Positions 4,462 through 54,733 of a stretch of 64,000 bases of DNA are shown one piece after another. The notes beneath the pieces are model-generated. The model was given only the letters and a program-made list of their open reading frames with translations. It made no database searches and was not told the DNA's origin. The position numbers and the translations under genes are program-made. The number at the start of each line of letters is the position of its first letter. Positions within the stretch are counted from its first letter, which is position 1. The DNA is from Solirubrobacterales bacterium (GTDB taxonomy: Bacteria > Actinomycetota > Thermoleophilia > Solirubrobacterales > 70-9), in the NCBI GenBank assembly GCA_035762685.1, contig DASTNW010000063.1, forward strand, positions 1,732-65,731. Reading direction: 5' to 3'.

Positions 4462-4830
4462 CTAGACGCACGTATTCCCGCTGTTCAAATACTCGGCTAC
4501 CTCCGATATCCGGCCCTCCGGGTCGAGGGTCAGGAAGAGGGCGCCTCTGAGTTCGATGTTCGTGCCTCGCTCGATGTTCTCGGCCGCCATGGACTGGGAC
4601 TCCGGGTCGACGAACAGCCGCAGGCATTCCATCGTCAGGTCCGGGTGGTCGCGCAGCTCGGCTTCGTAGCGGTCGCGGAGCGCGTCGAGGCCGTGCAGTA
4701 CGGCGGAGCCGTCGCGGAACACCAAGTCCGGAGCGTAGAGCGAGTAGTAGCTCTCCAGGTCGCGCCTGTTCCAGCGATCGATGTAGTCGGCGTAGAAGGT
4801 CGCCAGCTCGGCGGCGTTGAGCCCTACCAT
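4462..4830 (-). CDS. SnoaL/NTF2-like domain protein
   Basis: FYADYIDRWNRRDLESYYSLYAPDLVF...GALFLTLDPEGRISEVAEY is the SnoaL-like pattern. The start is placed at the internal ATG (4830) rather than the track start (4872). Confidence 0.6.
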   Translation of the reverse strand: MVGLNAAELATFYADYIDRWNRRDLESYYSLYAPDLVFRDGSAVLHGLDALRDRYEAELRDHPDLTMECLRLFVDPESQSMAAENIERGTNIELRGALFLTLDPEGRISEVAEYLNSGNTCV

Positions 4831-4922
4831 CGGCCGCGAGCCTAGTGGACGAAGACTGGCCAACCACCCCATTGGCCAAGGTTCCTTGCACCGGGGGCAG
4901 CTTTTAGGTCGATCTCTCCCGA

Positions 4923-7493
4923 GTGCTTAGGATGTGCCGTCTTTTGCCCCGCCGTTCCGATTTCCCATATGAAAAAGCAGCGAGCATTCAGCTTGCCGAG
5001 CGGGACTTTCAGCTTGGCCTGAATTGCGATCTGTGGCCGACCGAAGCGGGCACGCGCCCGCCGGGGTGGCGCGCTGGCAAGGACCAGCCCTGGCTCAGCC
5101 GCACGATCGACGATACATACGACGCAGACGGCGATGAGATCCCGGAGGACCGGCGCGAGCTCGCCTGCCCGCTGAAGGAGTCGATCCTCCGTTTCCCCTC
5201 GGCGCCGATCCACGGGCTCCACCGCCTGCACGAGTACCACGTCAACATCGGCGAGTCGGAGACCTTCCACACCTATCGCGTCCTCACCCACGCGAAAAGA
5301 AGGCGGAACAAGCCGGTAAGCCGCATCTTCCTCATGCACAACGGCCTCAACGAGGCGGAGTCGATGGGCCTCTACTACCGCCTCGCGTCGCGCCTGATTC
5401 AGCAAGACAAAAGCGGCGGCACCGCGTGCGTCCTGCGACCGTTTCCTGGCCACCTGACGCGCTCTCGGTTTTCGGGCTTCGCCGAGACCCCGCTCGACCA
5501 CTACCTCTGGGACGGCTCGCACCTCTTCCGCCAGTTTCTCCGTTACATGATCGAGACCCAGTGGTTCCTCAGCGTCATCGCCCGGCGCTCCTCTTATCGC
5601 TGCATCTCCGGGCTCAACCTCCTGGCGGAACACAGCAAACCGGCCCGCAGCCGCCTCGAAGACGACGTCCTCGCTGAACACATGCTGCGAGCGTGGAACG
5701 CGCTCTATGCCGTGTCACGACCCGCTGTGGGCGAACTGCACAGCGGTCACGACGACGCCACGCCGCTGGGACCTCGCGCATCGAAAAAAGCCATCCACCA
5801 GTCGATTGCCGCGATGCGCAGTCTGCTGAACCTGACCGAGAAGCTCGACGGCGACCCGAAGCCCACGGACGGGCCCGAGCCCGACGTCCACGTGATCGGC
5901 TACAGCCTCGGCGGCTTCGCGGCCCAGTCGATCTTCATGTCCTGGCCGTTCATGGTCGGATCGTGCTCGACCCTGCTCTCCGGCGGCGCGCTCCGGGAAT
6001 TGGCGCCGACGGCCTTTGCCGATCCGGAAGAGTGGCAGACGGTGCTGCACTCGCTTCGCTACGAGCTCGACGACGCGATGCTGAACGATCGCTACAAGTT
6101 CGTCAGCAAAGTCAAGGGGGGCATCGAGATGGGTCGCGTCTCGGGCATCGAATTCGACCTCTTCCTCTTCCTCAAGAGCACCTTCTACGAGGTCTTCCAG
6201 CAGGAGTACCGGGGCAGCTTCCAGACCCGCCTCGCCGCCTTCCGGCGCCGGATGCTCTTCATCGTCGGCGGCAACGACCCGATCGTGCGCCCGCAGAGCG
6301 TCCTCGACTCCGGTCCGCCCGACGGCATCAACATGCTCGCGGTCGGCGGCCTCGGCCACTTCCTCGGAAGCAAATCGCAGGACGACGAAGAGGAGCAGCA
6401 GCGACTCTTCTGGATACCGCGGATCGGCGAGCTGATCGACTCCCTCGCCGACGACGCGGCCAAGACGCTGGCGGACGAGCGCAGCGAGACCTGGCTCGGC
6501 CCCAAGATGGAGCTCCCGGCCAAGCCCGACCAGCCTGCGGGCGCCTCGGCGCTGGCCAAGACGTCCGGTCCGCTGAATGCGATGGAGCGCCTGGAGCTGG
6601 ACGGAGAAGGCTCCCTGCCCGGTCCGCTCTTCCAGCGCGTCCTCGACGACCTGCTCGCTCGCATCGACGCGCGCCGCGGCATCCTCTTCATCCTGCGCAA
6701 CGAGGTGCCAACCGCACTGCTGGAAGACGACGCCATCCAGCAGCTCGCCGCCGGCCTGCACCACAACGACATCGGGATCGTCAACTACATCGAAGGGCTG
6801 AAAGCACGTCGGGAACTGATCCTCGACAACCCCGAGCGCATCTCCCTGGTCCTCCCCTGGAACGCGCGCCTGATCACGGAAAAAATGGACGCCCACCCCG
6901 GCCACCCAAGCCAGTCGGAGGGGGCCGGCGGCCAGCTTCCGCGTCGCGTGGAGCCGAGGAAGATCTGGGAGAAGTTCAACGAGCGCTGCATCGAGGTGGT
7001 CGCCTCGGCACCCCACGCGATCCGCGTCTGCGACGGTCGCCTCGGCGTCCTCGACGAGAGCGGCCTGCCCGCGGTGGACACGGCCGCCCTTGCAAGCGCG
7101 GCCAAGGAGCGGCTTGGAATCGTCGACCGTACGCATCGCGTGACACCGTCGTTGCCGGACTGCTGGGTCTGGATGTCGCCGGAGTTCCTCGCGCTCGACG
7201 GCGATGAATCGCTTACGGTCGAGGCCGGCCGGTCTCGACTCTGCGAAGTGGTCCCCCGGGAGTACAAAGACGTCAACGTCCTCAACAACCGGTTGCGCCG
7301 GGACCACCTACGCATCGTCACCGTCTCCCGTTCGCGCTACAACCCGCGCTTCCGGGGACGGATCGTGGCCGACCCCCGCGCGGCCAGGAAACTCCTTCTC
7401 CACATCACGCTCTGCATCGCGGCCTCGGTCCCGTTCGAGGACTACGACCTCGACGCCCAGCCACCCCGGCTGCGCGAGCCGGAACCCGTCTGA
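4923..7493 (+). CDS. large serine alpha/beta-hydrolase with uncharacterised C-terminal half
   Basis: All catalytic elements are readable. Oxyanion-type strand: RIFLMHNGLNE. Nucleophile elbow: HVIGYSLGGFAAQ. Acid: LFIVGGNDPIV. His: VGGLGHFLG. About 350 C-terminal residues have no recognisable domain. Exact start uncertain. Confidence 0.7.
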   Translation: MLRMCRLLPRRSDFPYEKAASIQLAERDFQLGLNCDLWPTEAGTRPPGWRAGKDQPWLSRTIDDTYDADGDEIPEDRRELACPLKESILRFPSAPIHGLHRLHEYHVNIGESETFHTYRVLTHAKRRRNKPVSRIFLMHNGLNEAESMGLYYRLASRLIQQDKSGGTACVLRPFPGHLTRSRFSGFAETPLDHYLWDGSHLFRQFLRYMIETQWFLSVIARRSSYRCISGLNLLAEHSKPARSRLEDDVLAEHMLRAWNALYAVSRPAVGELHSGHDDATPLGPRASKKAIHQSIAAMRSLLNLTEKLDGDPKPTDGPEPDVHVIGYSLGGFAAQSIFMSWPFMVGSCSTLLSGGALRELAPTAFADPEEWQTVLHSLRYELDDAMLNDRYKFVSKVKGGIEMGRVSGIEFDLFLFLKSTFYEVFQQEYRGSFQTRLAAFRRRMLFIVGGNDPIVRPQSVLDSGPPDGINMLAVGGLGHFLGSKSQDDEEEQQRLFWIPRIGELIDSLADDAAKTLADERSETWLGPKMELPAKPDQPAGASALAKTSGPLNAMERLELDGEGSLPGPLFQRVLDDLLARIDARRGILFILRNEVPTALLEDDAIQQLAAGLHHNDIGIVNYIEGLKARRELILDNPERISLVLPWNARLITEKMDAHPGHPSQSEGAGGQLPRRVEPRKIWEKFNERCIEVVASAPHAIRVCDGRLGVLDESGLPAVDTAALASAAKERLGIVDRTHRVTPSLPDCWVWMSPEFLALDGDESLTVEAGRSRLCEVVPREYKDVNVLNNRLRRDHLRIVTVSRSRYNPRFRGRIVADPRAARKLLLHITLCIAASVPFEDYDLDAQPPRLREPEPV

Positions 7494-40206: not shown

Positions 40207-41203
40207 TCACCCCATGGCCAAGAGCTCGCGCAGATCGGCCACGATTTCCTCCGGTTCATCCCGAAGCTGCCGCCAGGTGACTCGAGTCGAGCGCCAACCG
40301 TCCACGAGCAGGACTCGGTCCCGCTGCCGGTCGCCCTCGAAGGCCCGCTCCGTGCCGTGCACTGCCCGCCCGTCGAGCTCGACCAGCAGCCGCTCCCGCT
40401 CCCACATGCAGTCCGGCCGCAGCAGCCGCCCCCGAACCGGCAGCGTCGCGTTGAAGCGCGGCCGCGGCAGCCCGTGGGCATCGAGGAACTCGACGAACAG
40501 CTCCTCGAAGTCGTTTTGGGTGACGCCCACCGGCTCGCCGCCGCCGAGGACGCCCCGTAGGACCGCGGCCCCGCGTCTGCCCGGATAGCGGTCCAGCAAC
40601 TGCGGCAGTGAAACGCGGCCCGTCATCTGCCGCACTTCGGCCTGGTGGAACGCCCGCTCCACCTCCCGCTTCGAGCCCACCGCCGCCAAGTCGAAGATCG
40701 TCCGGAAGGGCGAAGTGACGGGGACGCGACGCATCTCAGTCACCTCATCCGGCGCAAGTGGGGAGCGATGGACGACGATGCCGACCCGGCCTTGTCACTT
40801 CAGGCAGCGAAGAAGAGAGTGGCAAGAGGCCCCACAGCCGGGCAGCCGAGCGGTAGCTCAGCACTGCGCCCTTTCCGCAGGCAAGGACGGCTGCCATCCA
40901 CCGGCTCTCGGTCGTCGAGGGGCGATGCCCCACCGCATAGACCCCCCGATGCAACGGGAGCAGTCTTCCGCGCTTGACCCGCCAATCGATTTCGTCTCGC
41001 GTCAATCCCAAGGCCGGTAGTTGCCACCGCCCGACTACGCCGTGCTGTCCCCCGGCCAGCTCCCCCAGCGCCAATTCGACTTGCGCCGACGCCCCAGCTT
41101 CAACTGCTGTCGCGGCACGAGGGATGCGTTTGCGGCCCATAGGGCTGTCGATGCATCCCTCGTTAGGCATGCCGCTGATGCTGGCGCGGCGGGCCGCGCC
41201 CAT
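40207..41203 (-). pseudogene. frameshifted DUF559 (Vsr-fold endonuclease-like) gene
   Basis: The N-terminal half (40745-41203: GVVGRWQLPALGLTRDEIDWRVKRGRLLPLHRGVYAVGH...AVLSYRSAARLWGL) and the C-terminal DUF559 half (40207-40743: LVELDGRAVHGTERAFEGDRQRDRVLLVDGWRSTRVTW) abut in different frames at 40743-40747. Confidence 0.6.
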
Positions 41204-46783: not shown

Positions 46784-47740
46784 TCAGACCAGCAGGTCGC
46801 CGCCGCTGACGACCGTCTCGCCGTCGACTTCGACCGTCGGTTCGAGCAAGACGCAGTCGAGGTGGACGGGAACCTGGACGGTGCCGCCGATCGCGGCGGA
46901 GGCGCCGAAGGCGACGTGGCAGGTGCCGAGGATCTTCTCGTCCTCGAGGATGTTGCCGGTCAGCAGCGCCTCTTCGTTGGTCCCGATCCCGAGCTCGGCG
47001 ACGTTGGTGCCGTCGGCGCCGTGGACGCTCAGCAGGTCCATTAGCGCCGCCCCCTCGGTGCCGGTCGTCTCGGTGAGGTGGCCGCCGCGGACGGTCAACG
47101 AGACCGGCGTCTCCAGCAGCCCGACGCCGGCGATCGAGCCGTCGACGACCAGCGTGCCCTCCGCCGTCCCCTCGACCGGCGCGATGAAGGTCTCGCCGCA
47201 GGGGAGGTTGCCGAAGGCGCCGCGATTGCCGAGTTCGCCGGCGTCGACGATCGAGAGCCTCTCCTCGAGGCCGAGCCGGAGGTCGCTGCCGTGACGGCAG
47301 GTGATGCGCGCCTCCGAGGCGCCGTTGAGGACGCCGCTGAGCGCCCAGCCGCGGCGCCGCACCTCGGAGAGGTCGCTGACCATCAACCGCGTCAGCATGT
47401 CCTCGGTCACGCCCGGCAGGCTGCCGATCCGCACCCCCTCTTCGCTCGCTTTGCGACGGGCCGCGGTGTGGGAGATCGACTGGATCGTCGGCGCCAGCAC
47501 GACGTCGGCCTCGGCCATCGCGACGGCAACCACGTCCGGTGGCTCGGCGGCGGCCGATTCCCGCTCGGACATCACGGCCAGCGTCGCGCTGGCCCCGTCG
47601 CCCTGCGCCTCGATCCTCATCAGCGCCCCGATCTCTTCCGTCACCGGGTTGCAGACGATCAGCACCTCCTCGCCCGGGGAGATGCTCATGCACTCGCGGA
47701 CCACCGTCCGCACCGCCCTGTCCAGCTCCTCGGTGCTCAC
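46784..47740 (-). CDS. aminopeptidase, M29/AmpS-like family
   Basis: NLPCGETFIAPVEGTAEGTLVVDGS...HVAFGAS resembles the aminopeptidase T / PepS family. Assignment is by motif memory only. Confidence 0.65.
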   Translation of the reverse strand: MSTEELDRAVRTVVRECMSISPGEEVLIVCNPVTEEIGALMRIEAQGDGASATLAVMSERESAAAEPPDVVAVAMAEADVVLAPTIQSISHTAARRKASEEGVRIGSLPGVTEDMLTRLMVSDLSEVRRRGWALSGVLNGASEARITCRHGSDLRLGLEERLSIVDAGELGNRGAFGNLPCGETFIAPVEGTAEGTLVVDGSIAGVGLLETPVSLTVRGGHLTETTGTEGAALMDLLSVHGADGTNVAELGIGTNEEALLTGNILEDEKILGTCHVAFGASAAIGGTVQVPVHLDCVLLEPTVEVDGETVVSGGDLLV

Positions 47741-47803
47741 CTCCGCAACCCTAGCTTCCGCTCGCGCCGACGGTAAACCGCCACCGCTACCATCCCCGTC
47801 CCC

Positions 47804-47877
47804 GCCGGAGTAGCTCAGCTGGTTAGAGCAGCGGAATCATAATCCGCGTGTCGGGGGTTCGAGTCCCTCCTCCGGCA
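47804..47877 (+). tRNA. tRNA with CAU anticodon (elongator Met; Ile2/lysidine type not excluded)
   Basis: Folds by hand into a 74-nt cloverleaf. Acceptor GCCGGAG/CTCCGGC. D arm GCTC-AGCTGGTTA-GAGC. Anticodon arm GCGGA-ATCATAA-TCCGC. T arm GGGGG-TTCGAGT-CCCTC. Discriminator A. CCA not encoded. Confidence 0.9.
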
Positions 47878-47879
47878 TC
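47834..47879 (+). repeat. attL-like core (3' part of the functional tRNA)
   Basis: GAATCATAATCCGCGTGTCGGGGGTTCGAGTCCCTCCTCCGGCATC. Repeated at 53411-53456 with one mismatch. Confidence 0.75.
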
Positions 47880-48028
47880 CGGATTCCCCTTTGCAGAGCC
47901 AATTCTCGGGGCCATCCGCCCGCTCCGCAGGTTTATACGGAAAATCCGCAAGTCGCGTGTCCTAGCCAGGCCGAAATCCCCATCGCAGAGCCAAATGTTT
48001 GTGAAGCACGCCTCAGCATCTTATTTTC

Positions 48029-48058
48029 GGTGGACCGAACGGTGGACCGAGTTCGGCC
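48029..48058 (+). repeat. tandem GGTGGACCGA motif near the left island end
   Basis: GGTGGACCGAAC GGTGGACCGA GTTCGGCC, with 12-nt periodicity. A related copy lies at 53309-53346. Confidence 0.5.
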
Positions 48059-48299
48059 CGAATTGATCTGTCAGCAGCGTGCCTCGTCACCGGAGTTGAC
48101 CAGCGCTCCAGGGCAGGATCTGCGTCCAAACAACGGAACCGGCGACCTTCGGGGTATGAATTCCCTGGCGCGGGGTGAACAGGCCTGTTTTGGCTTGTCA
48201 AGCGGTCTGAGTTGGTCCGAGCTGGACCCCTTTTCGCTCAACTTAGTACCCACTTAGTACGCGCTCCCCGGCCGTCGAGGTTGGCGGGATCGGCCGCCG

Positions 48300-49427
48300 C
48301 TAGACGCGCCAGCGCTCCGCGATGGTCTCGTCGGCGACGAAGACCTGCCGAAACTCGGCGTCCTCGATCGCCCGGCGAACTGCGGCGCGGAGAACATCTT
48401 GAAGCAGGGCGACCTTGGCGAGGGCGTTCCGCTCATCGCTGCTCTGCGGACCTTCCTGCTCCTCCTCCGCTGAAGTGTCGGCGCCGGCGCCCTCACCGAC
48501 GAAAAGTTGCACGTGGGAACCGTGGACCCAATCGGAGCGACCATTGTAGAGCCGTTCGGCGAGGTCTTCGTCAAGGCCGTCGATCCCGATCTCGGCGGCT
48601 AGGGCTGGGACGCGCTTCTTGAACTGCTGGGTCAAGTCGCGGCGGCCGATCTTCAGCAGCGCCTCGATCCCGCCGACCAAGATCGGCAGCACCATGTCGG
48701 CCCAGCGGATACGAGGCGCATAGGCCATCCTCCACATTGCCCGCCTGACGCGGGGCGGCAGCTGCTCGCGGCACTCCCAATAGGCCCCCAGGAGAACGGC
48801 GAGTTCACGTCCCTCGGCGGCGTCGAGCCACTCGCGGTCGCGGTGCAGCCGCCAGATCGCCTTATCCTCGCGGTGGAGCACGTACACGATGCAGCGCTGG
48901 CCGTCCTCGTAGTCGAGCAGCCGCGCCGCGTACTCGGTCGAGTAGCCGTTATCGCGGACGAGGCGGCTGAGGGTGAGCGCATCGTCCAAGGTGCCGTCGG
49001 TGTCCCAGGCGTAATGATGCTCGTCCAGCTCGTCGAGCGGAACCTCCTTGACAAAGGAGTACCGCTGGCCGAACTGGCGCACCGGCAGGAAGTAGTGGCC
49101 GCGCGGCGTGCAGGCGTTCATCACGAGCTCGGCGGTGTCCCGGTCGAGTTCTTCGACCACAATGCCGCAGCCGAGATCGATCGCGTTGACGGTCTCACCG
49201 AAGCGCTCGTCGTCCACACCGGGGTGGCGATCCCATCCGATCGGTGGGTGAGCGTAGACCTCCTCGATCAGCACGTTGAGGGATGGGTCTCCGGCGCAGA
49301 GGATGAGGTCGCGCACCCTTACGATGGCGCCTGCGTTGAGCGGCCCGGCGCTGAACCGATCCTCTAACTCCGCGCTGAGCTGATCCGCCACGGAGGCATC
49401 CTCGCGCCCGGCGGAGACAGAAGGCAA
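48300..49427 (-). CDS. unknown protein with C-terminal HEPN-like core (ORF375)
   Basis: TTG start 5 nt after the ORF582 stop. Helix GGIEALL (E255), then LYNGRSDWVHG (R297/H302), then the amphipathic helix ALAKVALLQDVLRAAVRRAI. The N-terminal ~220 aa are unassignable. Confidence 0.6.
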   Translation of the reverse strand: MPSVSAGREDASVADQLSAELEDRFSAGPLNAGAIVRVRDLILCAGDPSLNVLIEEVYAHPPIGWDRHPGVDDERFGETVNAIDLGCGIVVEELDRDTAELVMNACTPRGHYFLPVRQFGQRYSFVKEVPLDELDEHHYAWDTDGTLDDALTLSRLVRDNGYSTEYAARLLDYEDGQRCIVYVLHREDKAIWRLHRDREWLDAAEGRELAVLLGAYWECREQLPPRVRRAMWRMAYAPRIRWADMVLPILVGGIEALLKIGRRDLTQQFKKRVPALAAEIGIDGLDEDLAERLYNGRSDWVHGSHVQLFVGEGAGADTSAEEEQEGPQSSDERNALAKVALLQDVLRAAVRRAIEDAEFRQVFVADETIAERWRV

Positions 49428-49432
49428 TGCGC

Positions 49433-51181
49433 TCAGTCCTGCGCCGCCGCAGGCTTCTCCTCGGCGTCAGGGCCAAGCTGCAGGGCTAAGGTGCGCAGGT
49501 CGATGTCGACGTCCTCTCCCGCTTGGACTCGGGCCTCCCAGGCAAGTAGCTCAGCGTTCCCGGGGAGCTCCTCGACGGCGTTCGCGGCGAGAAATTGAGC
49601 TTCCATGGCATCGCCGGTGGCCGCAAGCTGGACGGCGCCTGCTGCCTGCAGCGCCGCGTCGACGGAAGGGGGCATTCTCAGGTGGCGCTTTTTGGATCGT
49701 TCCTCTCGCCTCTCGGCGGCGAGGTCTGCCCACTGTTGGGACGTCCAGTCTGGCGCCTCGCCCAAGAGGATCGAGACGACGAACGACTGGATCGAGGGTT
49801 CTTCGAGCAGGCGGCCGTAATCCGAGATCAGCTGGATCGCCAATGGTCTAATCGCGTCGATGGGTCCGATCTGATTCCAGAGCGCGTAGATGGCGAGCAT
49901 CGAGCGCTTTGCCTCATCGTCAGAGGTGCCTGGAAGCAGCCGCTCAATCTCCTCCCGCACCTCTGCTAGATCGTTCACCCCGTCAGAGCGACCAGCCATG
50001 GCGTCGACCAGGCAATCGACACAGCCCGCGAAATATCTGCCTGCACTATTTGAGTTGAATCCACGAGCGTTCCAGATCCAATACTGGGGTGCCGCCTGCA
50101 TTTGGAGAACGCCTGGCAGGGCGGCGCGCCAATTGAAATCACCATCGACCCCGACCGGTGCACGGAAAACGTAGGCCTCCACGACGTGGCGGGCTAGGCG
50201 CGCAAGACCCTGCAGCGAGATCATCGTCCCGAACTCCAGGGATGCGACGGTGTCCGCCCTCTCCCCCAGCACCATGACCTCGGCAGGAAGCTCCTCGAGC
50301 GCGTGGACGCTCCCGGAGCGCACGTCGTAGGCGATCTTCAGTGCACGCTGTAGGTCGGGGCGCCGAAGCGGGAAGCGGCTGCCGCTCGCCTCCTCGCGAA
50401 AGTAAGAAGGACGCAGGTTGTCCTCCACGAAGGCGACGAAGCGGCGCTTCTTGCCAGCGCGCTCAGCCTCCAGAATGGCGTCTCTGATGCGTTTCGCCGC
50501 CTCGGCGTCCACAGCGTCAAGCGTGGGCTCCAGCAGCTTTCGCTTGCGCGAATCGAAATGCTCCCAAGGGATCGGGTCCGCGTCGGTGTCCTCGCTCAGG
50601 GACTCAAGTGCAGCCACGAGGTGGACGTAGGAAACGGTCTGGTCAGCCGTCGCCCACTGAGTCGCGCGGACGATGCGGCGGATTGCCCGCATCGCCGCTT
50701 CGAAATGACCGCGGCGCAGGGAGAGCAAGCGCTCGAAAAAGCGATCGAACTCCGCGATCTCCTCATCCCCGATGTAACGGGCAGGGTCGAAGGTGTTGAG
50801 AAAGATCTTCGAGGCAGCGGAGCGTGAGGAGTCCGAGATCGAGTTGGGGACCAGCCTGCGAACCGTGTCGGAGTCGCGGTGGAAGACGGAGTCAAGTGCG
50901 AACGAGAGGACATCGGCCAAGTCATCGATCAGGTCGACGCCGCCAGTGGCGACGTGGGTGGAGCGCTCACCATTTGGAAGCTCGGCCTCAAGGTGCTCGG
51001 TGACGGTTGCGGTCACAGTCGAGACAGGATCAATGCCGCTCGAGGGTGCCAGTTGTCCAATCGGCAGCTCCAGCGCCGCCTCCCGCAGAAAGTTGCGGTT
51101 CGTATAGAGGACGGTGCGGTGATCGGTTGAGAACAAAGGCACTCCCTCGCGGAAGTACATCTTGGTCACGATCTGCAGCAC
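49433..51181 (-). CDS. unknown protein with central HEPN-like core (ORF582)
   Basis: GTG start. Helices AAMRAIRRIVRA / YVHLVAALESLS (E193), a ~90-aa insert, then IAYDVRSGSVHALEE (R288/H293). Followed by a ~240-aa helical C-terminal extension. Confidence 0.6.
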   Translation of the reverse strand: MLQIVTKMYFREGVPLFSTDHRTVLYTNRNFLREAALELPIGQLAPSSGIDPVSTVTATVTEHLEAELPNGERSTHVATGGVDLIDDLADVLSFALDSVFHRDSDTVRRLVPNSISDSSRSAASKIFLNTFDPARYIGDEEIAEFDRFFERLLSLRRGHFEAAMRAIRRIVRATQWATADQTVSYVHLVAALESLSEDTDADPIPWEHFDSRKRKLLEPTLDAVDAEAAKRIRDAILEAERAGKKRRFVAFVEDNLRPSYFREEASGSRFPLRRPDLQRALKIAYDVRSGSVHALEELPAEVMVLGERADTVASLEFGTMISLQGLARLARHVVEAYVFRAPVGVDGDFNWRAALPGVLQMQAAPQYWIWNARGFNSNSAGRYFAGCVDCLVDAMAGRSDGVNDLAEVREEIERLLPGTSDDEAKRSMLAIYALWNQIGPIDAIRPLAIQLISDYGRLLEEPSIQSFVVSILLGEAPDWTSQQWADLAAERREERSKKRHLRMPPSVDAALQAAGAVQLAATGDAMEAQFLAANAVEELPGNAELLAWEARVQAGEDVDIDLRTLALQLGPDAEEKPAAAQD

Positions 51182-51243
51182 ACCCGTCCTCTCCAGTCCT
51201 TGAACTCCGTCGGGCTTAGCTTGGCAGGCCCGCGCGAGGTGTC

Positions 51244-51471
51244 CTAGTCGAGCAACTGCCGAAGCTCATCCGCGCTGAGATCAGCATCGCGCAAGATGCC
51301 GGCGAGGGTGCCACGACGGAGTTCTCGGTGCAGCGGGACGACGAGCGCGTGCCGGCGCCCGGCCTTCTTCAAGCGGACGTGGCTGCCACGTTGACGGACG
51401 ACTTCCCAGCCCTCCCTGCCAAGTGCCTTGATCAGGCGCTCGCCGGAGACGACCGGCTGGCGCGGGCTCAC
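51244..51471 (-). CDS. hicA: HicA mRNA-interferase toxin
   Basis: GERLIKALGREGWEVVRQRGSHVRLKK...VVPLHRELRRGTLAGILRDA is the HicA signature. 4-nt overlap with hicB. Confidence 0.85.
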   Translation of the reverse strand: MSPRQPVVSGERLIKALGREGWEVVRQRGSHVRLKKAGRRHALVVPLHRELRRGTLAGILRDADLSADELRQLLD

Positions 51472-51692
51472 GCCGGCAAGGGAATCGAGCGACGGATCAC
51501 GCCGCTGTCAAGCGATTCGCCGTCTTCGCGCAGGCCCTCGACATAGAGGGCGACCGCCTCGCTGGCGTTCGCCATCGCGTCGTCGATGTCGTCACCCTGG
51601 GTATGAAGACCGGGAAGGTCGGGCGCGTAGACGTGATAGCCACCCTCGTCCTGGGGCTCGAAGACCAACTCGATTTCTCGTGCATCTGCCAT
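51468..51692 (-). CDS. hicB: HicB antitoxin (minimal, no DNA-binding extension)
   Basis: IELVFEPQDEGGYHVYAPDLPGLHTQGDDIDDAMANASEAVALYVEGL is the HicB N-domain pattern. Only 74 aa. Confidence 0.8.
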   Translation of the reverse strand: MADAREIELVFEPQDEGGYHVYAPDLPGLHTQGDDIDDAMANASEAVALYVEGLREDGESLDSGVIRRSIPLPA

Positions 51693-51749
51693 AGCCGCTC
51701 CCTAGTGTACGCCGGCTCTCAAGCCGCTTGCCTATCTAGAGCATCAAGG
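51693..51749 (-). promoter_or_regulatory. hicB upstream element (copy A of a duplicated promoter/operator/RBS block)
   Basis: Minus-strand reading: CCTTGATG-CT-CTAGATAGGC-hairpin-GGCGTACACTAGGGAGCGGCT-ATG(hicB). The same block order recurs at 53205-53267. Confidence 0.4.
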
Positions 51750-51898
51750 TGACACTTGCAGAGCTGAATCAGCAGTCTAGAGCGGTTGACTCAGGGGTCG
51801 GAGACAAGGACATGTCGTCGCCCCTGTACATGTTGGAACCCGTCAGCCGACCTCGGCTCTGCGAAGCGATCCCCGCCCCGCCTTGGGCCTTCAAGCCG

Positions 51899-53137
51899 TC
51901 AGTCCCATGGGAACTCGATATTCAGCAGGGCATCCCTGTTCCGCTTGTCGGATGGATACGGCTCCACCTCTATCTGTTCGCCGAGCTCCCTCAGCTGCTC
52001 GTTCGCCATGAGGCTCGTCTTGAGATCGGCTATGAGCTCGCCTGCCTGCCCGAATGCTCGTTCCACCGCGTCATAGTCGAGAAGCTCTCCTTCGTGGACG
52101 GCTCGGTTGCGGAGCATGTAGCCATCGCCGAACCATGCGCCCCAGGGACCACCAAGATTCTTGATGTCGATTTCCCGCCCGAGCAGCTCCGGAAGATATT
52201 GCGTCACCTTCTTCTTCAGTGGCGCTTGATTCGCTTCCCATGCAGTCTTTTCGGGCACGCCGGTGATGGCCTGCCCGTAGTAGAGGACGAACCTGATCAA
52301 CAGCTCGACCGCAGTGTTCAGATCGACGAGGGCGCGAGTGTGATCGCCAACCAGCCGCTCGCCCTCCGCCGCGTGGATGAAGCGGAAGACCTCGAGAAAT
52401 GGTTGCCCACCTTCTTTCCCGCCCCCGTGATAGCCGATCGCCTCACGCGCAATGCTGCCGTCGTCATCTAGGTCACCCGCCAGTATCGGGTAGCCGTCGT
52501 GGATCTCGGTGGCGAAGGCGATCATCTCTCGCCGATCCCCCGCCAGCGTCACCGTGTTGTCGACCAGGACCGCGACTTCGGGCGGCACGTCGGCCAGAGT
52601 GAGCGCGCCGATCTCCCAGCGATCGGCGACGAACCCGAGCGGCTCCAACAGCGCGTTCAGGTGGACGAGACCGTCGAACATAATGCCCTGGAGGGCGCCG
52701 ACGGTCAGCTCTCGGCCCGGCGGATGCGCGCTCTGCGGCACGAATCGCGTCAGGGCCACTACTGACTTGACCACCTCGATCGTCGCCTGCCCAGGCTTTG
52801 GCGCGGCGCCCGGGCGGTTGGCCGATTCAGGCGGAATCAGGCCCTGCATCCCCCAATCGCCAAAGGTCGCTTCTATCCGGGACAGAGGCGCCGGCTCGGG
52901 CTCGGTCAGGTGGCGCGCGATCATGGATGTATGGGGCACCGAGTCCGTCGGGATCTCTCCAACCTTGATGCCACCGAGCAGCCCGGCTACATCGGCGTCG
53001 GTCCAGCCGCTCCATTCCTCGTCGCGATCGACGTAGGAGATGTGCATCGTTCCTGACTGCATCGGCAGCGCACGGGTAAGTTCAAGGAAGAAAGTGAAGA
53101 GGGTGACTGGCGCGCGGGGATCGGTGCCGTCAGTCAT
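51899..53137 (-). CDS. unknown protein with C-terminal HEPN-like core (ORF412)
   Basis: Helix LNTAVELLIRFVLYY (E278), then GYMLRNRAVHEGE (R343/H348, the classical R-N-x-x-x-H form), then helix AVERAFGQAGELIADLKTSL. The N-terminal ~260 aa are unassignable. Confidence 0.6.
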   Translation of the reverse strand: MTDGTDPRAPVTLFTFFLELTRALPMQSGTMHISYVDRDEEWSGWTDADVAGLLGGIKVGEIPTDSVPHTSMIARHLTEPEPAPLSRIEATFGDWGMQGLIPPESANRPGAAPKPGQATIEVVKSVVALTRFVPQSAHPPGRELTVGALQGIMFDGLVHLNALLEPLGFVADRWEIGALTLADVPPEVAVLVDNTVTLAGDRREMIAFATEIHDGYPILAGDLDDDGSIAREAIGYHGGGKEGGQPFLEVFRFIHAAEGERLVGDHTRALVDLNTAVELLIRFVLYYGQAITGVPEKTAWEANQAPLKKKVTQYLPELLGREIDIKNLGGPWGAWFGDGYMLRNRAVHEGELLDYDAVERAFGQAGELIADLKTSLMANEQLRELGEQIEVEPYPSDKRNRDALLNIEFPWD

Positions 53138-53204
53138 TGGCTGGCGATCGGTGCGGTTCTTGTCTTCAAGGAGAGCGACGGTCGGCGGATATAGCCCGGC
53201 ACAT

Positions 53205-53267
53205 AAGCGCTTCCCTCTAGCTTACGCCAGCCTTCGGGATGCTGGCCTATCTAGTAGGACATCAAGG
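53205..53267 (-). promoter_or_regulatory. copy B of the duplicated upstream block, ahead of ORF412
   Basis: Minus-strand reading: CCTTGATG-TCCTA-CTAGATAGGC-hairpin-GGCGTAAGCTAGAGGGAAGCGCTT-ATG. This ATG (53204) opens only a 12-codon ORF that ends 28 nt before the ORF412 start. Confidence 0.4.
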
Positions 53268-53308
53268 GCGATGTTCATCGGACTCTCCGGGCCTTCCGCT
53301 TCCGGCGT

Positions 53309-53346
53309 GGTGGACCCGACGGTGGACCGAACGGGGGAGTTCCGGC
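53309..53346 (+). repeat. tandem GGTGGACC(C)GA motif near the right island end
   Basis: GGTGGACCCGAC GGTGGACCGAAC GGGGGAGTTCCGGC, in the same orientation as the left copy. It ends 65 nt before the attR core. Confidence 0.5.
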
Positions 53347-53410
53347 AGAACGGAACGCATCCAGCAGAGCGGGCGAAGGCGGAGAAACCGCATCGCTGCT
53401 CGCTTGGCGC

Positions 53411-53456
53411 GAATCATCATCCGCGTGTCGGGGGTTCGAGTCCCTCCTCCGGCATC
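53411..53456 (+). repeat. attR-like core (displaced partial tRNA 3' end)
   Basis: GAATCATCATCCGCGTGTCGGGGGTTCGAGTCCCTCCTCCGGCATC. It has C instead of A at tRNA position 37 and lacks the tRNA 5' half. Confidence 0.75.
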
Positions 53457-53476
53457 AGGACTCGCGTGATCTGGCG

Positions 53477-54292
53477 TCAGCTGGCGAGAAGATCGCGGAC
53501 CAGGTCGGCCAGCGCCTGCGGCTCCTGGGCCATGAGGGCGTGGCCGCAGCCGGGGAAGGTCTCGACCGTCGCCCCAGGCCAGAGGGTGGCGAGGGCATCG
53601 GCGTTGGCTGGCGGGATCACCTGGTCGAGGTTGCCGTGGGCGATCAGGACGGGCGTGGCGTCGGCGGCGACGGGGCGGGGAGCCGATTCACGGTGCCAGG
53701 CGTCCATCGCCGCCTCCTGGGCACGCAGCGTCTGGGGGGACAGTTCGGACCTTGCCGCGGCGACGAGGTCGCCGAACTGTCGGTCGATGTCCGGCGCCAG
53801 GGCCGGCGGGAAGAGCAGGGAGATCAGCCGCGACGCCTGCTCGCGGTGGGTGCCGGAGTGGTCGGTCAGGCGGGACCAGACCTCCGGCTCGGCGGGAACC
53901 GAAGCGGGACCGCCGGGGTCGGTGGACAGCAGGGCCAGCGCCGCGACCCGAGCGGGCGCACGCGCCGCCAGTCGCTGCGCGACAAAGCCCCCCATCGACC
54001 AGCCGACCAGCGAGACCCGCTCGATCTCCAGGGCATCGAGCAGGGCCTCGAGGTCGGCGGCCATGCCCTCGATCGTCAGCTCCGCTTCGCCGAGCTCGGA
54101 GCCGCCGGTCCCGCGGTTGTCGGGACAGATCACCCGGAACGACCGTGCCAGCCCCTCGAGGAAGGCCGGGTCCCAATCCGCACCGGTCGCCGCGTACCCG
54201 TTCACCAGCAGCAACGGCGGTCCTGCGCCGAGCCGGCGCCAGGCGAGCCGGCGCCCCTCGACCTCGATCGTCTCCACCGGCACGGCTCCCAC
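53477..54292 (-). CDS. alpha/beta hydrolase
   Basis: LLLVNGYAATGADW, PDNRGTGGSE, nucleophile elbow LVGWSMGGFVAQ, and C-terminal GCGHALMAQEP. Confidence 0.85.
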   Translation of the reverse strand: MGAVPVETIEVEGRRLAWRRLGAGPPLLLVNGYAATGADWDPAFLEGLARSFRVICPDNRGTGGSELGEAELTIEGMAADLEALLDALEIERVSLVGWSMGGFVAQRLAARAPARVAALALLSTDPGGPASVPAEPEVWSRLTDHSGTHREQASRLISLLFPPALAPDIDRQFGDLVAAARSELSPQTLRAQEAAMDAWHRESAPRPVAADATPVLIAHGNLDQVIPPANADALATLWPGATVETFPGCGHALMAQEPQALADLVRDLLAS

Positions 54293-54304
54293 GGGCCGAA
54301 CCTA

Positions 54305-54733
54305 CTACGCCCCCGGGCCCACCTCGACCATCAACGTCACCGGACCGTCGTTGACCAAGGCCACGCCCATGCAAGCCCCGAAGACACCCTCCCTGGCCCC
54401 AAGCCGTTCACAGAAGCGGTCGTAGAGAGGCTCGGCGACCTCCGGCCGCGCCGCCTGCACGTAACTGGGCCGGTTGCCCCGGCGGGCGTCGCCGTAGAGC
54501 GTGAACTGGCTGACGCAGAGGATTTCGCGCTCGCCGAGCGGCTCGTTCATCCGCCCCTCGGCGTCGTCGAAGATGCGCAGGGCCCGGACCTTGGCGGCCA
54601 GCCGGTCCGCCTCCTCCTCCCCGTCGCCGACCCCGACCCCCAGCAGGACCAGCATCCCGGGGCCGATCTGGGCCACCCGCTCGCCCTCCACGTCCACCGC
54701 TGCCTGGCTGACCCGCTGGACGAGCGCCCTCAT
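54305..54733 (-). CDS. dtd: D-aminoacyl-tRNA deacylase
   Basis: MRALVQRVSQAAV...LVLLGV...VSQFTLYGD...GNRPSY...GVFGACMGVALVNDGPVT. Confidence 0.92.
   Translation of the reverse strand: MRALVQRVSQAAVDVEGERVAQIGPGMLVLLGVGVGDGEEEADRLAAKVRALRIFDDAEGRMNEPLGEREILCVSQFTLYGDARRGNRPSYVQAARPEVAEPLYDRFCERLGAREGVFGACMGVALVNDGPVTLMVEVGPGA

Follow-up and report, generated by a model that had tools for sequence, protein, structure and literature searches.

How does foreign DNA come to occupy the 3′ half of a tRNA gene, bounded by what look like attachment (att) sites, without encoding a recognisable recombinase? This question is raised by a 5.6-kb island in a tRNA-Met(CAU) gene of a Solirubrobacterales bacterium (contig DASTNW010000063.1), which we analysed within a 64-kb stretch of DNA, hereafter the window. 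A previous, sequence-only reading had proposed an attL/attR footprint of site-specific integration that lacks an integrase, and had offered two explanations, a decayed element or one that is moved by an integrase acting in trans. An analysis of about 130 related loci supports the footprint. It also suggests that these were the right two options, but that the island consists of three or more units fused in tandem rather than of a single decayed element. We consider it likely that a non-autonomous island was built in the tRNA 3′ half by repeated site-specific integration, followed by internal deletions.

The integration site is organised as follows:

47804..47877, plus strand: tRNA-Met(CAU) gene, intact according to ARAGORN and Rfam
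47834..47879, plus strand: attL core, the proximal copy of a 46-nt repeat, comprising tRNA positions 31-74 plus 2 nt
53411..53456, plus strand: attR core, a displaced 3′ tRNA fragment with C at 53418 in the anticodon-loop copy
53477..54292, minus strand: alpha/beta hydrolase gene, native right flank, GC content at third codon positions (GC3) 0.89

A repeat search recovered a direct repeat of 53 nt (47834-47886 and 53411-53463; 94% identity). Over the first 46 nt, its two copies are distinguished by a sole substitution at tRNA position 37, where 47841 is A and 53418 is C. ARAGORN called a sole tRNA, the tRNA-Met(CAU) itself, in the whole window. Neither ARAGORN nor the Rfam covariance model detected a tRNA 5′ half or cloverleaf at the distal copy; Rfam found no second tRNA-like sequence in 47000-54500 and, at E <= 1, nothing credible as another structured RNA in the island. 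The 46-bp repeat, its one mismatch and the missing 5′ half, all described earlier, were thus reproduced. The AT-richness that had been judged by eye is borne out by a GC content of 0.640, compared with 0.717 +/- 0.011 in same-size segments of the native part (z = -7.1). The tetranucleotide distance of the island is 0.322 against a background of 0.116 +/- 0.016, with a background maximum of 0.157.

The CAU tRNA has a G1-C72 pair and, judged by this pair, is not an initiator tRNA. ARAGORN labels it as Met; elongator tRNA-Met and tRNA-Ile2 (lysidine) both remain candidates. On the distal side, the junction between core and hydrolase gene seen in the window is also found in the related locus L090. 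In L081, a YjbQ-like gene lies within about 365 bp after the distal core and both the hydrolase gene and dtd are absent, indicating that the DNA to the right of attR also varies among genomes.

To place the island in context, we retrieved 80 syntenic loci through the M29 peptidase gene, which lies directly upstream of the tRNA. They are Solirubrobacterales or Thermoleophilia metagenome-assembled genomes (MAGs; best M29 match 93% at the amino acid level). Almost without exception, the related Solirubrobacterales loci share the tRNA gene over 74/74 positions. In 20/80 of the syntenic loci, a further 3′ piece of the tRNA, which begins at position about 28-44, lies 1-10 kb downstream. Position 31 marks the start of the identity block in about 20 independent loci, and L049 contains three or four copies of the core. 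The intervals between tRNA and second fragment are compositionally foreign and carry highly varied cargo. Five loci (L002, L075, L076, L078 and L066) encode a full tyrosine integrase (PF00589) beside the att end, in L066 alongside a Replic_Relax gene as in actinomycete integrative plasmids. Integrase fragments occur in L031, L071, L049 and L056, and the remaining hotspot loci have no integrase. Integrase genes abut tRNA fragments equivalent to the distal copy in L002, L075, L076, L078 and L134. The core is moreover present in five IMG/VR contigs with further integrase types. One viral-catalogue contig, L130, encodes an intact integrase whose coding sequence (CDS) ends at 5932, about 65 bp before the core; the core itself is flanked on either side by GTGCACCGA repeats that share one orientation. 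This layout corresponds to a classical lambda-type attP of about 250 bp (PMC4383910). The tRNA-Met gene is therefore a hotspot of integration across the order Solirubrobacterales, at which tyrosine integrases of several families act. At least four arm/integrase families are represented among the syntenic loci, with further types in viral contigs.

The check for an empty site, proposed previously, was positive. In L003 (M29 90%) and L036, a single native high-GC gene and then dtd come after the tRNA, and there is no further copy of the core. L001, the closest relative (M29 93% at the amino acid level), has other low-GC DNA at this position but no repeat and no island, and L002 (M29 89%) carries a different, integrase-bearing element. 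The opposite picture, in which all close relatives share the same island at the divergence of the flanks and no site is empty, is already contradicted.

GC3-based gene calling revealed five credible open reading frames (ORFs) in the island, every one on the minus strand, in agreement with the co-orientation reported before:

48300..49427, minus strand: p375, uncharacterised 375-aa protein with an invariant R297-S-x3-H302
49433..51181, minus strand: p582, uncharacterised 582-aa protein with an invariant R288-S-x3-H293
51244..51471, minus strand: hicA toxin gene (PF07927, E 2.8e-18; GSH motif)
51468..51692, minus strand: hicB antitoxin gene (PF15919, E 4.4e-12), overlapping hicA by 4 nt
51899..53137, minus strand: p412 CDS, 412 aa, with a HEPN-like C-terminal domain and an invariant RNxAxHEG

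No recombinase or excisionase was detected by Pfam, NCBIfam, PADLOC or PHROGs among these five ORFs and eight further ones, namely six small ORFs in the non-coding ends and two longer ORFs on the plus strand; PF00589 was absent from every island ORF examined with Pfam. A tblastn search of the whole window with six integrases from the same hotspot was negative, and Foldseek searches with AlphaFold models of p412 and p582 returned nothing recombinase-like. The earlier statement that the island encodes no recombinase thus holds at the level of sequence models, tblastn and fold search. An integrase elsewhere in the window was also sought by gene calls over all 64 kb and by Pfam on the low-GC ORFs at 1-9 kb, with negative results. 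The same was true of a hidden integrase remnant in the 420-bp non-coding left end, for which tblastn with the six hotspot integrases and Pfam on small ORFs were used.

The internal structure of the island was resolved by three-way alignments against L109 (hicB-D4-arm) and L049 (arm-core-p412-core), which fixed two junctions, J1 and J2. D4 denotes a palindrome that is present in two copies, D4a and D4b.

51702-51739 and 53217-53254: D4, 38-nt imperfect palindrome (CTAG..GCCAGC-N9-GCTGGC..CTAG), two copies
51702..51755, no strand assigned: D4a and about 12 nt of right arm, then J1
51756..53206, minus strand: p412 unit, its own left-arm start (TTGCAGAGCTGAATC...) kept
53207..53262, no strand assigned: J2 and D4b, where the p412-upstream region joins a third hicB-D4-arm-core unit exactly at its CAT (start codon)

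At J1, the window runs from hicB-D4 through about 12 nt of arm and continues directly with the p412 unit at its left-arm start; the arm and core that are missing here are still present in L049. At J2, the hicBA coding DNA of the third unit is gone. The pieces also occur on their own. The p412 module (51756-53206, 1.45 kb) is 87-89% identical to a stand-alone 1.6-kb core-flanked island found in L049, L082, L095 and L119, and hicA-hicB-D4-arm-core alone constitutes islands of 0.84 kb in L109 and 1.2 kb in L104. In L068, hicAB is joined straight to the arm. The alignments thereby show the island as an apparent fusion of at least three formerly att-bounded units: p375-p582-hicAB, p412 and a hicB-arm-core stub. 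The composite with both junctions is also found in L122, where it is colinear over 5.2 kb, and its right half in L081 (92.6%). This sharing implies a single origin of the composite, followed by inheritance or transfer in one piece.

The DNA next to the cores carries a second signature of site-specific integration. Each integrase family at the hotspot has a short tandem repeat just inside the tRNA-proximal core, at about +61/+73, which tracks the integrase type:

GGTGGCAAGG type, GGTGGCAAGGrAAGTGGCAAGG: 11 loci including L066, with int_L066
TGTGTCCCAAA type, TGTGTCCCAAAtrTGTCCCrAA: L002 and L075, with int_L002/075
GGGCAACG twice: L076, L078 and L048, with int_L076/078/048

We interpret these repeats as integrase-family-specific arm sites. 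The island has its own type, referred to as GGTGGACC or F4, on both sides:

47880..47970, plus strand: remnant of a further decayed unit, about 92 nt, with the post-core motif TTTGCAGAGCCAA at 47889-47902
47971..48050, plus strand: left arm of a GGTGGACC-type (F4) unit, with a second post-core motif (47971-47994) and the tandem repeat GGTGGACCGAACGGTGGACCGA (48029-48050)
53263..53410, plus strand: right arm, with the tandem repeat TGGACCCGACGGTGGACCGAAC (53311-53332) ending 78 nt before the core

Three exact copies of the 10-mer GGTGGACCGA are present in the 64 kb (48029, 48041 and 53321), all of them on the plus strand and no more than about 170 bp from an end of the island. The expected number is 0.19, and 0/100 shuffles reached three copies. 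A fourth copy, longer by one base, lies at 53309. When one mismatch was allowed, there was no window-wide enrichment (13 versus 8.3 expected), so that only the exact motif is significant.

At the left end, which is homologous to L063, L108 and L109, the repeat pair lies at +152 from the attL core rather than at about +65. The first 92-nt segment is conserved in the same three loci, and the post-core motif TTGCAGAGCCAA is duplicated 92 nt downstream. A stretch at about 47936-47975 aligns with the core (z = 5.2 versus shuffles) and is a probable degenerate core copy; measured from it, the repeat pair falls at about +59/+71. This canonical offset suggests that the first 92 nt are the trace of one more unit.

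The right arm spans about 130 nt up to the core, beginning with CTTCCGCTTCCGGCG and including TGGACCnGnCGGTGGACCGAAC and GAGTTCCGGCAGAACGGAGAGCATC. It is kept in 18 metagenomic loci, in which the repeat ends 77-80 nt before the core and the cargo consists of hicBA, p412 or unrelated genes, and also in L027 and L049. In total, 33 metagenome loci matched the right-arm pattern, including two further loci with an internal deletion and about 11 chance matches that lack flanking homology. None of the 33 has a full integrase beside a GGTGGACC arm, and the two GGTGGACC arm patterns gave 0 matches in viral contigs. Three islands (L089, L027 and L119) are hybrids with a left-arm repeat of the GGTGGCAAGG family and a right arm of the GGTGGACC family, pointing either to fusion of neighbouring units from different integrase families or to recombination between them.

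Nucleotide identities between the window and related loci provide insight into how the units spread:

L122: M29 flank 84.9%, p375 87.8%, p582 64.0%, hicA 89.9%, hicB 91.4%, p412 93.7%, right arm 87.2%
L081: p412 95.6% versus YjbQ flank 80.2%
L049: p412 88.9% versus M29 80.0%
L104: hicB 89.1% versus M29 77.4%

Overall, p412, hicBA and p375 are 88-96% identical in loci whose flanking genes are at 77-85%. Since modules and arms are more alike than their flanks and the closest relatives have no island, the modules appear to have moved horizontally after the lineages split. The p582 allele behaves differently, with about 64% nucleotide identity between sibling islands (window versus L122 and L090) while its neighbours are at 88-94%. 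This pattern indicates putative allele replacement or diversifying selection, both frequent in defence genes. In L122, p582 appears disrupted, with a 271-aa call.

Relatives also retain traces of integrases. L096 encodes a 71-aa C-terminal integrase fragment abutting GGTGGACC repeats, L049 and L119 contain integrase fragments, and L128/L129 have a 152-aa fragment beside p412. The L096 fragment is no closer to the L130 integrase (47%) than to int_L002 (51%). In L123 (JGI Ga0376037_0002005), p375 (90% identical) is joined to part of hicA, and next comes a 6.3-kb insert encoding an SMC-like ATPase and two unknown ORFs. After the insert come hicB, a 394-aa tyrosine integrase and, at the contig end before any att site, an HTH_17 excisionase-like gene. 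L123 may thus be nearest to an integrase-bearing ancestor. A putative derivation from such an ancestor draws on the fragments in L096, L049/L119 and L128 and by the excisionase-integrase pair of L123, with no remnant in the window.

What does the mismatch at tRNA position 37 mean? The base is A in all aligned distal copies of sibling and related islands (L122 and about 20 others), and the single mismatch between L081 and the window's distal copy is consistent with A at this position as well. The C at 53418 is thus a private point mutation of the window copy, and not, as had been suggested, the mark of an element-derived imperfect core. Heterology between overlap regions prevents strand exchange by integrases of the lambda type. 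An identity block that starts at the anticodon stem defines an anticodon-loop-centred att site, class A of the Islander scheme (PMC4383910). For a site of this class one would place the crossover in the 7-nt anticodon loop, at the left end of the block; the mismatch falls in this very loop, and the crossover would not be to its right as proposed earlier. With a private C in the presumed crossover region, and given the block imposed by overlap heterology, the window copy would be poorly excisable or not excisable. Probably it can no longer be excised, even with a cognate integrase.

Taken together, we propose the following route. Tyrosine integrases of several families recombine an attP carrying tRNA positions ~31-74 with the tRNA gene, as the comparison of loci shows, which restores the tRNA and displaces a 3′ fragment. 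New elements would enter at the intact tRNA and push older units distally, as in the established accretion model for cis-mobilisable elements (CIMEs) and integrative and conjugative or mobilisable elements (ICEs/IMEs). At least three units would have been fused, namely left arm-p375-p582-hicA-hicB, the single-gene p412 unit, and a stub of hicB start, arm and core. Two deletions would have removed internal arm and core sequences, and about 92 nt beside the tRNA would be the trace of a fourth unit. What remains are the outer attL and attR cores with matching GGTGGACCGA arm repeats on both sides, and neither an integrase nor an excisionase. Persistence was plausibly aided by the HicAB toxin-antitoxin pair. 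Modules could have moved between lineages through an integrase acting in trans, or in cis once an integrase-bearing element had been accreted; homologous recombination through the conserved tRNA and core sequences may have offered an alternative route.

The cargo is consistent with a role in defence or addiction. HicA is a ribonuclease (RNase) toxin and HicB its antitoxin. PHROGs agrees with the Pfam assignment of the pair, and HicA with its short HicB is, by its domains, a standard type II toxin-antitoxin pair. An unrelated HicA/HicB-like pair lies directly beside the same tRNA-Met in L021 (8947-9390), which suggests that toxin-antitoxin modules recur at the hotspot across element families. 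One D4 copy is situated immediately upstream of the hicB Shine-Dalgarno sequence and start, the other upstream of p412, and at least 10 metagenomic loci have kept D4 in front of hicB. Its probable role is that of a hicBA operator or a 5′-UTR (untranslated region) hairpin.

The p412 family comprises about 380 representative clusters, all unannotated. Residues E278, W335, Y340, R343, N344, H348 and G350 are near-invariant and include the block GYxLRNRxVHEG. R343, N344 and H348 are invariant in a 17-sequence alignment and at least 90% conserved over 56 members down to 18% identity. At the level of sequence, this block is a textbook HEPN Rx4H signature. The AlphaFold model of p412 is confident in the C-terminal helical domain only (predicted local distance difference test, pLDDT, 80-90). 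The best local Foldseek matches of this domain are 2q00 (prob 0.92, TMt 0.65), 2hsb (0.85, 0.61) and Csm6, all with E > 0.4. A p412 profile search against PDB sequences returned only ApeA (E 0.96), and such searches with p412 and p582 gave nothing below E 0.05. p412 lies upstream of hicB-hicA in the same orientation in the window, L081 and L122, and also in L083/L084 (45% identity), away from any tRNA. An obligate partnership with HicBA was ruled out since p412 occurs alone in L049, L082, L124 and L126. In L083/L084 and L124, p412 homologues are located between rsmI-like (TP_methylase) and metG-like genes, outside the tRNA hotspot. hicBA is present in L083/L084, where p412 is at 45% amino acid identity to the window but hicBA at 83% nucleotide identity, and L124 has no hicBA. 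The rsmI-like/metG-like locus looks like a second recurrent insertion site, one with no att core.

p582 and p375 form a conserved two-gene module and are adjacent also in L085 (58% and 77% amino acid identity). The p582 family has at least 189 clusters, spans Actinomycetota and reaches Pilimelia; the p375 family has at least 220. R288/S289/H293 of p582 are invariant in 53 sequences, and R297/S298/H302 of p375 in 34. Their neighbourhoods contain TIR, CAP12-PCTIR, DUF4238, AAA/STAND, integrase and type IV secretion system (T4SS) genes. In the p582 model (pLDDT 84), a beta region at the N-terminus precedes a helical core and a TPR-like C-terminus; Foldseek returned neither a significant match nor a HEPN match in the PDB. 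Pfam and PADLOC gave no HMM (hidden Markov model) match for p582 or p375. No island ORF matched a known defence system in PADLOC-DB v2, and across PADLOC, NCBIfam and PHROGs only HicAB was matched among the island proteins. Paralogy of p375, p582 and p412 was rejected, as BLASTP and hhalign were negative; p582 and p375 share just a short Y-D-x-R-S-x-x-V-H block that is not significant. We consider p412, p582 and p375 most likely to be HEPN-type RNase or abortive-infection defence modules, with weak structural support for p412 only. A defensive or addiction RNase role of the three is suggested by their conserved motifs and contexts.

Several observations weigh against this overall reading. J1 and J2 could stem from one insertion of the p412 module with a duplication of about 55 bp, although we regard this as less likely; D4a and D4b are only 74% identical. 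The higher identity of modules than of flanks could partly reflect strong purifying selection. No full-length integrase is tied to GGTGGACC arms in about 130 loci or in the viral collection, and hence the arms could be relics in slow decay. In many loci hicB has the right arm on its upstream side, so that regulation of hicBA could explain part of the arm's conservation; the arm is conserved also in islands that have no hicBA. As for the cargo, no Pfam family, HEPN models included, matched any of 56 p412 family members, and the putative HEPN assignment draws on a short motif and on Foldseek matches that are not significant (E > 0.4).

Among the alternatives, homologous recombination fares best, and we regard it as possible, if rather unlikely, that it explains the island. 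The conserved tRNA, the 46-nt cores and the arms would serve as portable homology through which RecA swaps, deletes and inserts units after DNA uptake or conjugation. This would suit a tRNA that is identical across the order over 74/74 positions with up to 4 cores per locus, the mixed-family arms of L089, L027 and L119, the swapped p582 allele inside an otherwise conserved island, and deletions that end at or near repeats (D4a/D4b). However, 46-nt cores are near the lower limit for efficient RecA recombination, and the unit boundaries lie exactly at att cores with family-specific arms, which points to an integrase origin. Homologous recombination is compatible with stepwise integration and deletion, and may act on top of it.

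An active satellite, in which a cognate tyrosine integrase and excisionase from another part of the genome or from an incoming element act on intact arms and move the island as a unit, seems unlikely to us. It would account for the retention of both cores and of exact arm-type repeats on both arms, for an arm at fixed spacing in 18 loci, for the recurrence of the whole composite in L122 and L081 with most modules (all but p582) closer than the flanking genes, and for the patchy distribution among close relatives; L130 shows such an architecture working with an integrase in cis. Yet the 64-kb window, the related loci and the viral contigs contain no cognate full-length integrase, attR carries a private mismatch in its anticodon-loop part, the internal junctions show decay rather than maintenance, and p582 is disrupted in L122.

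A more far-reaching version, which we hold to be doubtful, would see all GGTGGACC-arm units as gene cassettes that have no integrase and are moved by enzymes acting in trans. Integrases of co-resident elements would capture, stack and shuffle at the tRNA single hicBA cassettes (about 0.84 kb), single p412 cassettes (about 1.6 kb) and composites such as the island in the window. If true, the locus would be a tRNA-borne cassette array, functionally integron-like but operating on lambda-type att sites with arms. The array would then be a reservoir of new defence modules, HEPN-like and HicAB-linked, with p412-HicBA as a three-gene and p582-p375 as a two-gene system.

It is very improbable that p375, p582 or p412 is itself a novel site-specific recombinase that renders the island autonomous. 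p412 would be the obvious candidate, as it has no annotated function and adjoins the distal core in the window, L049, L082, L095 and L119, where integrases sit in L002 and L075. But neither p412 nor its 56 family members match PF00589 or a resolvase, the confident C-terminal domain of the p412 model resembles HEPN proteins and not recombinases, and its motif is RNxxxH with no R-K-H-R-H/W-Y catalytic set. p412 is also found away from any tRNA or att site (L083, L124), and p582 and p375 occur in unrelated contexts. Finally, the distal repeat as a remnant of a duplicated, degraded second tRNA-Met gene, the possibility that had been named as fatal to an att site, is effectively refuted: the fragment has the orientation of the gene, but it has no 5′ half, its upstream sequence is a conserved element arm, the block starts at position 31 in about 20 independent loci, and integrases abut its equivalents in L002, L075, L076, L078 and L134.

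The reading of stepwise integration followed by deletion has a clear precedent. CIMEs have lost integration and transfer genes but keep attL and attR, and arise by tandem accretion at the 3′ end of a target gene (PMC5704250). For ICESt1-related Streptococcus elements, tandem accretion is covered by the summary of Pavlovic 2004 and Bellanger 2011 given there (PMC5704250). Like a CIME, the island keeps attL and attR (46-nt cores and arm-type repeats) with no integration or transfer genes, occupies the 3′ end of its target gene and belongs to tandem arrays shaped by integration and deletion, with integrase-bearing relatives at the same site. In contrast to streptococcal CIMEs, which reside in Firmicutes and target fda or another protein gene, its host is a member of the Thermoleophilia (Actinomycetota) and its target a tRNA gene. 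Furthermore, the island has no conjugation remnants, its units measure 0.8-1.6 kb with one or two genes, and internal att sites have been lost. The island therewith fits a CIME-like product of tandem accretion and decay, for which cis-mobilisation is putative. The mechanism is the established accretion-and-decay route; current understanding stands, and the island is of a fairly ordinary decayed kind.

The island also resembles the tDNA islands catalogued by Islander (PMC4383910) in its intact tDNA with a displaced 3′ fragment in direct orientation, its foreign composition, a block starting at the anticodon stem, an implied attP of about 250-350 bp with arms, and an unoccupied site in relatives. 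Unlike them, it fails the integrase filter, and the pipeline would not catalogue it. Standard pipelines that require an integrase miss such islands (PMC4383910), so that surveys under-count both the islands and their cargo. Actinomycete integrative elements and prophages in tRNA genes, here L066, L002/L075, L076/L078, L130 and L134, share the same core and have family-specific tandem arm repeats about 60-110 nt from it. They encode an integrase beside the att site, whereas the window island does not, and the GGTGGACC family is seen with fragments only (L096).

Toxin-antitoxin-mediated maintenance as an integrated element has been described for SGI1 (PMC5704250). The overlapping PF07927/PF15919 pair beside the att site resembles HicAB pairs on other integrated elements, with a plausible stabilising role. 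In distinction from those, the window HicB is short (74 aa) with no recognisable DNA-binding domain, and p412 often precedes the pair in the same orientation (L081, L083/L084, L122), suggesting a three-gene module. With HEPN RNases such as Csm6, ApeA and AbiD/F-type proteins, the cargo shares the invariant Rx4H with a polar residue after R (RNxxxH in p412), the helical C-terminal domain of p412, the toxin-antitoxin association and defence-island-like neighbourhoods. It differs in having no HEPN or defence match in Pfam, PADLOC or NCBIfam, and for p582 and p375 the motif alone is shared.

What deserves attention at this locus is the order-wide hotspot, the very small single-gene att-bounded units and three unannotated Rx4H families. 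The island gives a base-level view of a tRNA hotspot that accumulates and fuses small att-bounded units in a little-studied soil lineage known almost only from MAGs. A practical rule also emerges, namely that the tandem repeat about 60-110 nt from the core identifies the integrase family of an island. The sizeable p412, p582 and p375 families are candidates for RNase-based defence or addiction modules.

Two further features of the window lie outside the island. A second low-GC stretch at 1-~9000 (GC 0.64; tetranucleotide distance 0.34 versus a background of 0.12) extends past the window edge, and no tRNA or integrase was noticed in it. Most of its ORFs have no Pfam match, the exceptions being SnoaL_2 (4462-4872) and a weak alpha/beta-hydrolase match in an 856-aa ORF (4923-7493). 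This stretch may be another island. Finally, a 178-aa ORF at 40207-40743 (minus strand) encodes a DUF559 / REase_MTES_1575-like endonuclease domain and lies in a local GC dip (about 0.68).

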